Positions 8,103 to 42,697 of a stretch of DNA of 64,000 bases are shown in pieces. A program made the position numbers and the translations under genes. Source of the stretch: Thermodesulfobacteriota bacterium (lineage in GTDB: Bacteria; Desulfobacterota; Binatia; Bin18); contig OZ219926.1 of assembly GCA_964291405.2 (NCBI GenBank), positions 1,333,825 to 1,397,824 on the forward strand. Direction: 5' to 3'. Below the pieces are notes generated by a model. That model was not told the origin of the DNA and searched no databases. It saw only the letters and a list, made by a program, of their open reading frames with translations. Each line of letters starts with the position of its first letter. Within the stretch, counting starts at the first letter, position 1.

Positions 8103-9185
8103 ATGATTGACGTTTCCTATACCACTGCTCCCTGCCCTGTCCGGGCGGACATCGAGGAAGCGCATACCCTTTTTTGGCAAAAACTCGCCGCTCCCGGCAC
8201 GTGGTGGACTGGTGCTGAGCGTGTGGCTATCGGTGCAGAGGTGCGCCAAGCCCGTCACTGCCAGCTGTGCCAAGAGCGGAAGGCGGCCCTTTCGCCCACA
8301 GCGATCCAGGGGACTCACGATACTGGGGGAGTGTTACCGGAAACCGCCGTTGAGATGATTCACCGGGTCACGACGGACCCAGGCCGGCTGAGTAAGCGGT
8401 GGTACGACGACCTGCTGGCCCGGGGACTGCCAGACACCCACTATGTCGAGGCGCTGGGCGTCGTTGGGCGCACGGTCAGTGTCGATTCGTTTTGTCGTGG
8501 CCTGGGTCTCCCGTTGCATCCCCTCCCAACCCCCGTTGCAGGCGAACCGAGCCGGCGGCGGCCGCCTGAAGCCACACTCGATGGTGCCTGGGTTCCTATG
8601 GTTCCAAACGGACAAGCGAATGTCATCCGTGCCCTCAGTCTCGTCCCGGCCGAAGTGCACCTCAGTATCGAAGTTCTGCTTCCGGTTCAGTACATGGAAA
8701 TCTCTGAGGTCAGGAATTTGTCGAGCGATCCCGGCCGTGCGATCAGTCGCTCCCAGATAGAGCTCCTCGCCGCGCGTGTCTCCGCGCTCAACCAGTGCTT
8801 CTATTGAACGACCGGTCATACGACACTGCTCCGGGGGAGCAGCCAAGTTGATGGAATCGATGTAGAACTGACGTCAGTTGTTGCTCCAGGTGTAGAGAGC
8901 GGCGTGCCTCATGGGGCATGCCTGACCGCCTTTGCGGAGGCCGTCCTCGGAACCGATGCTACCGCTCTGGTAGCGGCTCGTCAGCAGGTCCTGGCAGAGC
9001 TCGGTCCAGCAGGGCTGGTTGATGCGGCGGCCGTGGTGGCCACGTTCATGCAGATGGACCGGATTGCGGATGGGGCCGGGATCCCTCTCGACGCCGCTTT
9101 TGTTGAGCCAACCCAGGAAATGCGGACCAGACTGGGATTCAACGACTTCGCCTCGGCGCAGAATACGCTGAGCGTGGCTACCTAG
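8103..9185 (+). CDS. AhpD/carboxymuconolactone-decarboxylase-family protein with an in-frame UGA (candidate selenoprotein, CxxU motif)
   Basis: ORFs 8085..8807 and 8904..9185 are in the same frame, 819 nt apart. The only stop between them is TGA at 8805-8807. The context LNQCFY-TGA-TTGH reproduces the family motif C-x-x-C-x-x-x-H with TGA at the second Cys. A hairpin lies just downstream. A GGAGG RBS favours the ATG at 8103. Confidence 0.75.
8821..8850 (+). promoter_or_regulatory. candidate bacterial SECIS stem-loop for UGA 8805-8807
   Basis: A perfect stem CTGCTCC/GGAGCAG (8826-8832 / 8836-8842) closes a G-only loop. A possible lower stem CGAC/GTTG pairs 8821-8824 with 8847-8850. The upper stem starts 18 nt after the UGA. 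Confidence 0.6.
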
Positions 9186-9366
9186 TCACATACGAAGAGA
9201 GGTCTTGCTGAGGCCTCGCCCAGCCCTCTTGGCTTTCCAGAGATGTTGGTCGAATGGCACCAGATGCACCCCTTGGCCTCGGCGTGTTGTCCAAGCACTC
9301 CTCCTGACGCGATCATCCGACGATCACTTTATTATGGGCTTTTAACAGACTCTCTGGAGGGGAAAA

Positions 9367-10020
9367 ATGAATAGATATCTTTTGGCCCCAGTCGCTTTCG
9401 CTATGAGTACGGTTCCAGCCTTTGCGCACCACCCGCTCGCCGGTGCGCCGATGGAAACCCTCACCGACGGAATCCTATCCGGCGTTGGACACCCGCTCTT
9501 GGGCTTTGATCATCTCTTCTTCGTCATCGCCGTTGGCGTGGCGGCGCTGTACACCGGTCGCGCGAAACTGGCAACGGCAGCCTATGTTGGCGCGATGCTG
9601 ACTGGGTGCCTGCTGATGAGTTTTGGCCTTGGTCTTCCTGTCAAGGAATTTGTGATCGGCATGTCGCTGCTGGTTGTCGGCTCTCTCATTTTGTCCGGTC
9701 GTGCCCTGGGTCTTACGCCGGCTGTCGGACTTTTCGCGGTTTTCGGCCTGTTCCACGGCTCAGCCTTTGGCGACACGATCGCGGCCCAGGAAGCAGGGGC
9801 GAGTGCTGCTGTTCTGGTCGGCTATTTGGTCGGGCTTGGCCTGGTGCAATACGGCTTGGCGCTCTTGGCCGGATTTGTTGTTCACAATCTGCTGAAAGCA
9901 ACAGCGGCGCAACATATTCATGCCCGCCTGGCGGGCGCTGTTGTTGCTGGTGTCGGCATGTTTTGCACGCTTGAGAATATCGAAGGCCTCGTCTTCAATA
10001 TGTTGGGCCTGGCTGTCTAG
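9367..10020 (+). CDS. HupE/UreJ-family membrane protein (putative Ni/Co transporter)
   Basis: 217 aa. It has a signal-like N-terminus, the motif GVGHPLLGFDHLFFVIAVG (HPxxGxDH) and multiple hydrophobic helices. Confidence 0.75.
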   Translation: MNRYLLAPVAFAMSTVPAFAHHPLAGAPMETLTDGILSGVGHPLLGFDHLFFVIAVGVAALYTGRAKLATAAYVGAMLTGCLLMSFGLGLPVKEFVIGMSLLVVGSLILSGRALGLTPAVGLFAVFGLFHGSAFGDTIAAQEAGASAAVLVGYLVGLGLVQYGLALLAGFVVHNLLKATAAQHIHARLAGAVVAGVGMFCTLENIEGLVFNMLGLAV

Positions 10021-10272
10021 AGAAGCCAAGCCATCCGGCGCTGAAGTCCTGCATCCCGTGAAGCTGTTTGCGAAAGAGATTCTGCCAGGTCTGCCTTAAG
10101 CTGGTTCAATAAGGGAAGAACACCTCATGGCAGAAACACAAGAAATCATGTCGGGCCTCCTGTCGTGGTACAGGCTACGGAAACGGTCCCTTTGTGTCAT
10201 TTGGCCCGTTGTGCACGGCTTCCCGTTGGGACCGACGTGATCGGTCCCCTACTCTTTCATTCACCACGCGAT

Positions 10273-40416: not shown

Positions 40417-41454
40417 ATGAAAACATCCATCATGATCGGCGGAGCGACGTATACCGATATGCAGGGCATGGTTGAGTTTGTCCAACACGCTGAGCGTGTT
40501 GGCGTCGATCATGTCTGGTCGGCCGAGGGGTGGAGCCAGGATGCGGCAACATCCCTTGCCTATCTCGCTGGCCAGACTGAGCGCATCATCCTCGGCACCG
40601 GTATTATGCAGATCAGCGCCCGTGCGCCGTCTATGATGGCTATGACAGCCCTGTCCTTACACGATCTCTCCGGAGGACGCTTCATCCTGGGCTTGGGAAC
40701 AAGCGGCCCTCAAGTTGTAGAAGGGTTGCAGGGCGTCCCATTTCACGCGCCGCTTACCCGACTGAAAGAGACAGTCGATATTATCCGCATGGCTTTTCGA
40801 GGTGAGAAGCTACGCTATGAAGGCAAGCTCCATACCCTGCCGCGACCGGGTGGTGAGGGCAAGGCGCTCCGGCTTGACCATAAGCCCGTGGACATCCCCA
40901 TCTTTCTGGCAACCCTGGCACCCAAGGCGCTTGAATATACAGGCGCAGCGTCAGATGGTTGGCTAGGTACCTCATTTTCGCCTGAGTGTCCCGAAGCCCA
41001 TCTGGCTTATATTCGCAAAGGGGCAGAAGCAGCAGGACGAAAACTCAGCGACATTTCCCTGCATGCTGGGTGCGTGGTTGCGCTTGGCGACAATGTCGAG
41101 GAGCTCATCAACATGCGCAAGCCGTCTGTCGCCTTTAGTATGGGCGCTATGGGCTCGGCCACAACGAATTTTTACAACGCGGCCTTCCAACGCGCAGGGT
41201 TCGAAGACGATGCCAAAGCCATTCAACAACTATGGAGTAAGGGAAAACGCAAAGAAGCCGCAGAGCGCGTTCCGGACGCTATGGTGACGCAGTTCGGGGC
41301 TGTCGGGACCCCAGACATGATTCGTAAACGCTTTCAAAAATACAAAGACGTGGGAATTGACGGACTCACACTACGCATTGAAGCCGCAGATCATGCGAAA
41401 CGCATGGCAGATCTCGAACAAGTTATGGATGTGGTTGGCTCGATTGAAAAGTGA
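40417..41454 (+). CDS. LLM-class oxidoreductase (resembles the F420-dependent subgroup)
   Basis: 345 aa, with VDHVWSAEGWSQDA, GRFILGLGTSGPQVVEG and GTPDMIRKRFQKYKDVGIDGLTLR. Confidence 0.8.
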   Translation: MKTSIMIGGATYTDMQGMVEFVQHAERVGVDHVWSAEGWSQDAATSLAYLAGQTERIILGTGIMQISARAPSMMAMTALSLHDLSGGRFILGLGTSGPQVVEGLQGVPFHAPLTRLKETVDIIRMAFRGEKLRYEGKLHTLPRPGGEGKALRLDHKPVDIPIFLATLAPKALEYTGAASDGWLGTSFSPECPEAHLAYIRKGAEAAGRKLSDISLHAGCVVALGDNVEELINMRKPSVAFSMGAMGSATTNFYNAAFQRAGFEDDAKAIQQLWSKGKRKEAAERVPDAMVTQFGAVGTPDMIRKRFQKYKDVGIDGLTLRIEAADHAKRMADLEQVMDVVGSIEK

Positions 41455-41536
41455 ACTGATAACGCCTTTTCCTGAGATGGGACCTTTTATTATCGCGGAA
41501 GACACGCAATTACCATATCTGTTCAAAGGAGCAAAG

Positions 41537-42697
41537 ATGCACGACAACGACCAAGCCATGCGCGAGTTTGCCAAGACCTTAGCGCTGCCAGAATTTGAAG
41601 AAGCCGCTTTCACGAAACCACCACCGCTGCGAGAGGCGCACGTGGCGATCGTGACCAGCGCTGCGCTCCACCGAATCGGCAGCCCCAAGTGGAAGGTTGA
41701 GGATTTCCACTTTGAGACCTTGCCGAATGACGCCCGCGATCTGAAGCTCGGCCACCTGAGCCCGAACTTTGATCGGGCTGGCTTTGCCGCTGACATGAAC
41801 GTCGTCTATCCGGTCGACCGCCTGCAGGAACTCTCCGATCAGGGGGTGATCGGCAGCGTCGCTAATTACCACTACGCCTTCGCCGGCAACCAACCCGAAG
41901 GGCTATCCGCGCTGCGTTTGGATACTGGTCCGGCCTGCGCTCACAAGATGCGTGAGGATGGAGTGGATGTTGTCCTGCTCACTCCGGTTTGACCGCTGTG
42001 TCCGCGTACCGTGTGTACGCTGGCCCACGTCTTCGAGGCGGCTGGTCTGTCAACGGTCGTGATCTCACCGATGCGTGATGTTGCAGAACGCATGCGTCCA
42101 CCACGCGTACTGTATGCAGAATTTCCATTAGGGCTGCCTCTCGGCAAGCCCCGCGACGCGGCCTATCAGCACCGGGTGCTCGAAGCGGCCTTTGCCCTGC
42201 TGGAACGGCCGAGTGGACCGGTTCTCGTAGACTTCCCGGAGACGATCCAAAGCAGGGGTGGGGAGCCCTTAGAGTGTCCGCTTCCGCCTCGTTACGATCC
42301 GAACCTGCACCCAGCCATTGACGAAGCACAAGCGTTACGCGCTGCTTACGACCGCGCTGTAGCGAAAACTGGGCGGACCAGTGTCGGCCGGGTGATCAAT
42401 GCGGATCAGATTCCTGCCGCACTCGAGAAGTTCGTACGTATCGCCGAAGGGGAAGCCTGGGATCAGGTTGGGCTCGAAGGGACGACTATGCAGGTCGTGC
42501 ACGATATCCGGGCCTACTACGAAGAGTTGGCCTGCGAACTGGTAGTCGACGAGCCCATTCCGGCGTGGAGCGCTGAGCGTTGGTTCTACGATAAAACCGA
42601 GGCCGGTAAGGTGTTGCTGACGGCACGCCGTACGCTGAAGGAGAGTGGGGCGAACCGTCCGATCTGGTTTTTCATGGCCCCGGGCTCACGCCAGTAA
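41537..42697 (+). CDS. GrdB/PrdB-family (glycine/sarcosine/betaine/D-proline reductase selenoprotein B-like) protein with an in-frame UGA
   Basis: ORFs 41357..41992 and 42011..42697 are in the same frame, 654 nt apart. The only stop between them is TGA at 41990-41992. The joined sequence reads VDVVLLTPV-U-PLCPRTVCTLAHVFEAAGLSTVVIS...YAEFPLGLPLGKPRD. The N-terminal blocks VAIVTSAALH and DMNVVYPVDRLQEL fit the GRDB family. AAGGAG precedes the ATG at 41537. Confidence 0.75.
42000..42024 (+). promoter_or_regulatory. candidate bacterial SECIS stem-loop for UGA 41990-41992
   Basis: A perfect stem GCGTAC/GTACGC (42004-42009 / 42015-42020) closes the loop CGTGT. It is extendable to 42000-42024 with one mismatch. 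Confidence 0.55.

Follow-up and report, generated by a model that had tools for sequence, protein, structure and literature searches.

In a 64-kb window of genomic DNA (the window being the whole stretch analysed here) from a Thermodesulfobacteriota/Binatia bacterium (assembly GCA_964291405.2, contig OZ219926.1, positions 1,333,825 to 1,397,824), three genes carry a UGA codon that very probably specifies selenocysteine (Sec). The three UGAs (8805-8807, 13245-13247 and 41990-41992) each lie in frame within one long plus-strand open reading frame (ORF), and the products are an AhpD-related protein, an Rv2258c-type methyltransferase and a GRDB/PrdB-like protein. Judging from the sequence, we estimate a probability of about 93% that the standard bacterial mechanism decodes the UGAs as Sec, and that the three products are redox- or thiol-dependent enzymes unrelated to one another. 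An earlier note on this DNA had located in-frame TGAs at 8805, 13245 and 41990, in the contexts CFY-U-T, CMH-U-MS and V-U-PLC, and had taken them for Sec codons. Positions and contexts are confirmed, and the assignment is supported by the pairing of Sec with Cys in homologues, by conservation of both the TGA and the frame downstream of it, and by hairpins resembling the bacterial Sec insertion sequence (SECIS).

In the proposed mechanism, a SECIS hairpin within the coding sequence, its loop 17 to 24 nt after the UGA, would be bound by SelB; selenium would be incorporated at the UGA, and Sec would stand where homologues have Cys. The genes selA, selB, selC and selD would reside elsewhere in the ~4.9-Mb chromosome. 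The likeness of the three hairpins may be explained by the fact that all of them must fit one SelB. The AhpD-related and PrdB families have been known as selenoproteins since 2005-2008, and both the mechanism and the hairpin geometry are textbook knowledge. No concept is changed by the three genes. With them, Candidatus Binatia joins the lineages in which selenoprotein genes are clear, and the ~110 bacterial selenoprotein families catalogued so far may gain a methyltransferase.

Conserved cysteines and conserved UGA codons

The first gene (8103..9185, plus strand) reads through the TGA and encodes a member of the NF041238 family, 'AhpD_rel_CFYUT', described as 'alkylhydroperoxidase-related (seleno)protein'. 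The profile match (445.2 bits against a cut-off of 175) covers model positions 1-357 and spans the TGA; the Pfam CMD domain is also present. The start at 8103 was taken from a called gene of 234 amino acids (aa), an ATG at 8085 being an alternative. The UGA (8805..8807, plus strand) forms part of the motif C-F-Y-U-T (8796-8810) and aligns with the Cys of CFYCT homologues. Nearly all truncated homologues (113 of 116) end in CF[Y/F], the few full-length ones read CFYCT, and the TGA is retained in orthologues of as little as 44% identity (L006, L084 and L169-L173, the L numbers denoting related loci). Compared with the NF041238 family, the gene has a full-length match to the hidden Markov model, the exact CFYUT motif and homologues that are mostly Sec forms, and differs in nothing notable. 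A Binatia homologue is already labelled '(seleno)protein' by NCBI. The family is included in a 2026 selenoprotein catalogue (PMC13188914), and AhpD-like 1 (CxxU), with 299 Sec sequences, was among the most abundant selenoproteins in the Global Ocean Sampling (GOS) survey (PMC2398784).

The second gene (12333..13407, plus strand) reads through its TGA to give an Rv2258c-type protein with a winged-helix domain and a class I S-adenosylmethionine (SAM) methyltransferase domain. Pfam HTH_65 (PF21320) matches with 119 bits (cut-off 24.1), Methyltransf_31, _23, _25 and _11 all exceed their cut-offs, and a glycine-rich VLDVGCGSG stretch was taken by eye as the SAM-binding motif. PDB 5F8C, whose deposited name is 'Methyltransferase' and which we take to be Rv2258c of Mycobacterium tuberculosis, matches with 410 bits over residues 11-356, across the TGA. 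It has the same two-domain architecture and, unlike our protein, carries Cys at the Sec position. The UGA (13245..13247, plus strand; motif C-M-H-U-M-S) aligns with the conserved Cys of H-C-M-[T/S]-V-S-L, found in 77 genome loci and in 5F8C (MHCMTVSLAL). Full-length Cys homologues align end to end at 62-72% identity. On the Sec side, 40 protein clusters (80-97% identity) stop exactly after ...SCMH, the TGA is retained in L001, L006, L007 and L166-L168, and the 52 residues C-terminal to it are conserved across the Sec-form DNA of six loci. The three sites had been described as two-thiol motifs. This holds for the Sec forms of the methyltransferase, since the first Cys of CMHU is present in 40/40 Sec-truncated clusters, but not for the family as a whole, where only ~40% of Cys-form homologues have it.

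The third gene (41537..42697, plus strand) encodes a GRDB/PrdB-like selenoprotein of 386 aa including Sec, its start matching the N termini of homologues. Pfam GRDB (39.3 bits, cut-off 22) is the only profile above cut-off; TIGR04483, the PrdB model, reaches 116.5 of the required 300 bits, and TIGR01918 reaches 49.9 of 65.45. A conserved C-terminal extension of ~150 aa is absent from the 238-position TIGR04483 model, and a PrdA-like partner was not found among the called genes within 10 kb. These features set the protein apart from the clostridial D-proline reductase PrdB, and we therefore regard it as PrdB-like and not as a proline reductase. It has no sequence-level relative in the PDB. The UGA (41990..41992, plus strand; motif U-P-L-C) aligns with the first Cys of CP[L/M/V]C: full-length Cys homologues (~395 aa) align end to end and have C-P-L-C at the Sec position. 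Many database homologues are 227-aa C-terminal fragments, as gene callers yield from Sec forms. Among the related metagenome loci with a readable codon at this position, 75 of 78 have TGA and three have TGT. The marine 'PrdB' family (GOS/Sargasso, pfam07355) shares with our protein the GRDB-superfamily domain and a UxxC at the homologous position, and in both groups Sec forms are far commoner than Cys forms in metagenomes. With 235 Sec and 110 Cys sequences, that family ranked among the most abundant selenoproteins of the GOS data (PMC2398784).

These alignments bear directly on a simpler explanation, namely that the TGAs are real stops arising from nonsense mutation, pseudogene formation or assembly error, so that the downstream frames are remnants or separate genes. 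Gene callers indeed treat them so. On the closest comparison contig (contig_41 of ENA ERZ25072176, 163 kb, 99.3% identical to the window), the gene calls break all three genes, into 234 + 93, 304 + 38 and 151 + 228 aa, which bears out the expectation that standard ORF calling would split or truncate them. The window also shows indel-type differences from this sister contig, and several of its genes look frameshifted. Against real stops, however, the same TGA is present in the two assemblies and recurs throughout the families (75/78 loci at site 3, 113/116 truncations at site 1 and 40 clusters at site 2). Moreover, the downstream frames are open and conserved at the protein level, and the hairpins described below are under selection at the RNA level. 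We regard this explanation as effectively refuted, its probability being minimal. In practical terms, the three genes of this genome, and those of many relatives, are mis-annotated as six fragments that should be merged, with Sec placed at the TGA.

SECIS-like hairpins downstream of the UGA codons

The clearest RNA signal belongs to the PrdB-like gene. Its hairpin (GCGUAC/CGUGU/GUACGC; 42004..42020, plus strand) has a 6-bp stem, a loop that starts 17 nt after the UGA and a folding energy of -8.5 kcal/mol. Across 67 distinct orthologues, 99.5% of the base-pair cells hold standard pairs. At alignment columns 18 and 28, 18 of the 67 sequences have C-G in place of U-A (U18-A28), with zero broken intermediates; another pair alternates between G-C and G.U, and the observed covariation was reached by none of 500 shuffles. 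Third codon positions are 96-100% conserved within the hairpin, the covarying one excepted, compared with 35-77% in the flanking codons. Three PrdB-like Cys-form loci, whose encoded peptide is almost identical, have no hairpin of 5 bp or longer. With its frozen synonymous sites and one compensatory pair, documented in 67 metagenomic sequences, the family offers an unusually clean SECIS example that could serve as a benchmark for SECIS finders.

The hairpin of the AhpD-related gene (CUGCUC/CGGGG/GAGCAG; 8826..8842, plus strand) has 6 bp, or 7 bp if the loop is taken as GGG, and its loop lies 24 nt after the UGA. Its energy is -11.1 kcal/mol, and 0/200 shuffles fold equally well. Orthologues down to 44% protein identity preserve it as (C/A)UGCUC-CG[G/U]G[G/C]-GAGCAG, third codon positions included, and both Ser codons are always AGC. 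This conservation extends over six distinct orthologous sequences, a number too small for statistics.

In the methyltransferase gene, the hairpin GGCCCUC/CGGGGU/GAGGGUC (13262..13281, plus strand) comprises 7 bp, with the loop 21 nt after the UGA and an energy of -11.7 kcal/mol. RNAfold prefers a competing GCCC/GGGU fold. In orthologues of 80-85% identity (L166-L168), a G.U pair of the stem has become G-C and the loop reads CGUGGU; these changes break the competing fold and thereby support the 7-bp hairpin. The TGA and the hairpin are kept together in six Sec-form loci, which represent four distinct sequences and are likewise too few for statistics. The GCCCUC/GAGGG[U/C] hairpin was not found among the Cys-form methyltransferase sequences inspected by eye, and in 22 of 77 Cys forms this G+C-rich stretch contains a different hairpin, of 6 bp or more.

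The Zhang and Gladyshev consensus, as given in PMC13188914, specifies loops of 3-9 nt on stems of 4-16 bp, a spacing of 16-37 nt and an energy of -7.5 kcal/mol or lower. Bacterial SECIS loops have G in the first or second position, usually followed by G or U, in the pattern N1-G-[G|U]-N-N2 (PMC13188914). All three hairpins agree with every feature of this consensus that was tested: their loops have 5, 6 and 5 nt, their stems 6-7 bp and their spacings 24, 21 and 17 nt, in the order of the genes. The loops are CGGGG, CGGGGU and CGUGU, and those of orthologues include CGUGC, CGUGGU and CGUGA. The stems of 6-7 bp with G-rich loops beginning with C, as first described for these sites, are thus confirmed and correspond to the consensus with N1 = C. 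A loop 18-25 nt after the UGA had also been reported; the measured distances are 17-24 nt. The common hairpin style proposed at the same time does exist as a resemblance, but it is no more specific than the generic bacterial consensus. Compared with the fdhF-type SECIS of E. coli, the three hairpins have the same position in the coding sequence after the UGA, the upper stem and the loop pattern; there is no sequence identity to the E. coli elements.

Could such hairpins be incidental, dictated by the peptides or by the G+C-rich sequence, with read-through depending on something else? Comparable hairpins are not rare: ~5% of positions, both strands included, carry one of at least 6 bp with at least four G-C pairs at the same offset. 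The hairpins of other kinds in the 22 Cys-form methyltransferase genes, the ordinary folding scores given in the next section and the failure of a two-family covariance model at the third hairpin point the same way. At a background of ~5%, however, hairpins at three of three sites would arise by chance with p ~1e-4. A loop of the form CG[G/U]GN(1-2) on a stem of at least 5 bp occurs 15 times in the window (both strands, 128 kb), and four of these hairpins have a TGA 16-37 nt upstream: the three Sec sites and a fourth whose surrounding frames run for 8 and 6 codons only. When a long open frame is required together with the loop motif and the TGA, exactly the three sites are left in 128 kb. At site 3, third positions are fixed within the hairpin and not beyond it, 18 of 67 sequences show a double compensatory change, and Cys forms with almost the same peptide do without the hairpin. 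At sites 1 and 2, orthologues retain stem and loop even as the flanks vary. An incidental origin is accordingly very unlikely, and we favor the view that the hairpins act as SECIS elements for Sec insertion.

The covariance-model check that had been suggested was built and run on the window, and a model of the hairpin alone turned out to be too weak for a genome scan. A model from all three families (R1) ranks sites 3, 1 and 2 first by construction (25.8, 21.7 and 17.1 bits), the next match scoring 16.0. A second model (R2), made from orthologues of the AhpD-related and PrdB-like families and containing no window sequences, recovers site 3 (26.5 bits) and site 1 (20.2 bits) and does not recover site 2 at E <= 10. 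It gives comparable scores to a terminator-like hairpin at 20685-20701 (16.7 bits) and to 9424-9448. Because it misses site 2 and produces false positives, a hairpin model needs to be combined with filters for an open frame and for Cys homology. The match at 20685-20701 (GCUGGA-CCGUGC-GUUCAGC; 14.8-16.7 bits) lies 16 nt after the TAG stop of a DUF1326 gene and was rejected as a false positive that is probably terminator-like. The other, at 9424-9448, is a palindromic hairpin of 84% G+C within a HupE/UreJ gene; it scores 13-16 bits on both strands and has no in-frame TGA upstream.

Decoding of UGA in this genome

Reassignment of UGA throughout the genome, for example to Trp or Gly, would also allow read-through, and nothing beyond the three read-through sites speaks for it. 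Among the 66 called genes, TGA serves as stop in 23, TAA in 22 and TAG in 21, and ~20 genes still end in TGA when the three Sec sites are left out. The four genuine TGA stops that had been singled out (499-501 on the minus strand, 6540-6542, 35773-35775 and 41452-41454) are all confirmed, and the conclusion drawn from them, that UGA is not globally reassigned, is borne out by stop-codon usage: TGA is used equally with TAA and TAG, which excludes it. In addition, the three TGAs align with Cys and not with Trp or Gly. This alternative is refuted, and the chance that it holds is negligible.

Several observations weigh against Sec. The Sec machinery had been reported missing from the window, and this is correct: neither a tRNA gene nor selA, selB, selC or selD is present there. 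No tRNA gene was found in nine related loci either, and Pfam domains of SelA, SelB and SelD were not detected in the called genes across ~83 kb, which includes ~20 kb of flanks. Rfam yielded no family at the gathering score in the whole window. Folding of the 66 nt after each UGA is unexceptional, with z-scores of -1.2, 0.0 and -0.4. Finally, the assembly contains single-base errors, as seen from 34 indels (with 94 mismatches, across 21 kb) relative to its 99.3% identical sister contig. The last of these points is tempered by the occurrence of the TGAs in both assemblies and in distant orthologues. As for the z-scores, they indicate that the signal is not one of bulk stability but comes from where a small hairpin lies and how well it is conserved. 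Since sel genes as a rule lie apart from selenoprotein genes, a window devoid of Sec machinery is what would be expected.

Permissive Rfam scans at the three sites gave chance matches to unrelated families only. The class V aminotransferase at 36711-37912, considered as a possible Sec lyase, resembles BhcA/AGXT (243 bits) and not NifS/SufS (34 bits). Its gene is split in the window and intact (399 aa) in L002.

A subtler alternative keeps the hairpins and changes the amino acid: a route resembling that of SECIS and SelB but employing a non-Sec tRNA might insert Cys or some other standard amino acid at UGA, in which case the products would not be true selenoproteins. For a few bacteria, tRNA-Cys variants that read UGA have been proposed, used with a SelB paralogue. 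The pairing with Cys and the SECIS-like hairpins would look identical under such a system, and Sec machinery was not seen in the window, its flanks or the nine related loci. Nevertheless, two of the three families are long established as selenoproteins across many Sec-using lineages, the hairpins match the canonical Sec consensus, and such recoding systems are rare. We consider this route improbable to much the same degree as incidental hairpins, and we retain Sec as the residue encoded at the three UGAs.

The Sec-form methyltransferase and the genomic setting

At somewhat less than even odds, the Sec form of the Rv2258c-type methyltransferase represents an uncatalogued selenoprotein family confined to one Candidatus Binatia clade. 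It was seen only in close Binatia relatives (~40 clusters, genomes of 4-5.6 Mb); more distant homologues all have Cys, as do all 77 genome homologues outside that clade. In a scan of the genome collection, the nearest species representative was 'Candidatus Binatia bacterium' OY763426.1, whose methyltransferase is 97% identical. The Sec form was not found in the selenoprotein catalogues consulted, and in the literature searched we found nothing linking either Binatota or Rv2258c to selenoproteins. The catalogued selenoprotein methyltransferases comprise ArsM forms, a methyltransferase/UXPK-star fusion, a methylated-DNA-protein-cysteine methyltransferase and MduS (PMC13188914). Our protein stays below the cut-offs (460-575) of the NCBIfam models for selenoprotein methyltransferases, scoring 31 bits with ArsM_DUF2284_UU, 27 with ArsM_AhpD_UU and 27 with MTase_UXPK_star. 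It resembles selenoprotein ArsM in that Sec replaces a methyltransferase Cys. 'MduS' (Haft and Tolstoy 2025) is listed with two Sec residues, whereas our protein has one; the two may nevertheless be related.

If these assignments are correct, Binatia would be an unrecognised Sec-using group with Sec in enzymes of oxidative and xenobiotic metabolism. Binatia are chiefly aerobic methylotrophs and hydrocarbon degraders. The genes of the window belong mostly to paralogous families of oxidative and xenobiotic metabolism (FMO, LLM luciferase-like, Amidohydro_2, epoxide hydrolase N-terminal domain, GST, SnoaL, GFA, YDMC and RidA), and all three selenoprotein genes are embedded among them. The methyltransferase has SnoaL, epoxide hydrolase and saccharopine dehydrogenase genes as neighbors. 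Around the PrdB-like gene lie genes for two LLM-class oxidoreductases, a RidA-like protein and an FMO; the flanking LLM oxidoreductases were not conserved neighbors in 80 related loci.

Within ~10 kb on each side of the Sec-form methyltransferase in L166 and L168, two more distant Binatia relatives, we noted ZnuA, ABC-3, MerC, Zip, cation efflux, CzcB/ACR_tran, SCO1/SenC, CobW and Fur. By analogy with the Cys/Sec of ArsM, these metal-homeostasis neighbors hint that the CxxU pair may bind a metal or metalloid, or that the substrate may be one.

The three selenoprotein genes do not form a conserved cluster. Those for the AhpD-related protein and the methyltransferase are 4.4 kb apart in the window and 10 kb apart in L006, and an AhpD-related gene was not found in the 10-kb flanks of the methyltransferase in L007, L166 and L168. 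Both the varying spacing and the absence of an AhpD-related gene near the methyltransferase in these three relatives argue against an operon or conserved cluster.

The window yielded no further Sec codons when searched for TGA with flanking open frames, for TGA with a hairpin or for TGA with a SECIS-like loop; the other matches lay in non-coding frames, antisense to real genes or in tiny open frames. It holds three selenoprotein genes in 64 kb; the richest catalogued bacteria have 46-63 per genome (PMC13326102). The scans lend no support to the proposal, made in the earlier note, that the organism is rich in selenoproteins. One match, 'AVCGH*CPGLG' at 19857 on the minus strand, was rejected because it falls in a different frame from the rhodanese gene there and has low G+C at third codon positions. 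The rhodanese protein itself (18232-19982, minus strand) has three domains with the Cys active sites LYCDTGQRS, TNCAGRTRS and TMCAGRARA. It has no in-frame TGA, and the model of the selenoprotein family NF041203 'rhodanese_LYCAU' gives one of its domains 102 bits, below the cut-off of 115. Its last ~50 residues seem out of frame, and a 135-aa ORF (18232-18639) overlaps it, which points to a frameshift shared by the two assemblies.

About 170 kb of related Binatia loci gave no additional selenoprotein candidates beyond paralogues of AhpD-type genes. Directly upstream of the AhpD_rel_CFYUT orthologue in L169, a second AhpD-type selenoprotein candidate (1707-2942) reads HSSCYY-TGA-TETIGA; 17 nt downstream lies a hairpin of 7 bp with the loop CGUGAU, and read-through gives a product that matches TIGR01926 with 134 bits. 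Together they would make two CxxU selenoprotein genes in tandem. In L172, a second CFY-TGA-T paralogue is located at 5839 on the minus strand.

Other differences between the window and L001-L005, which represent contig_41 of ENA ERZ25072176, concern intact and interrupted genes. L001 has a split version of the FMO gene that is whole in the window (3193-4821), and TauD is split in L003 and intact in the window and L004. These differences, like that in the aminotransferase gene, look like indel errors of long-read sequencing or strain variation. At 17418-18002 there is a pair formed by a HigB-like toxin and a helix-turn-helix antitoxin, and short ORFs resembling HigA and HigB fragments (37942-38422) occupy a gene-poor stretch at 37.9-38.4 kb; from 37.9 to 39.2 kb, the only ORF of at least 80 aa is a DmmA-like_N fragment. 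The FMO gene at 3193-4821 and its neighbor at 4914-6542 are tandem 542-aa FMO-like monooxygenase genes with ~90% DNA identity, which suggests a recent tandem duplication.

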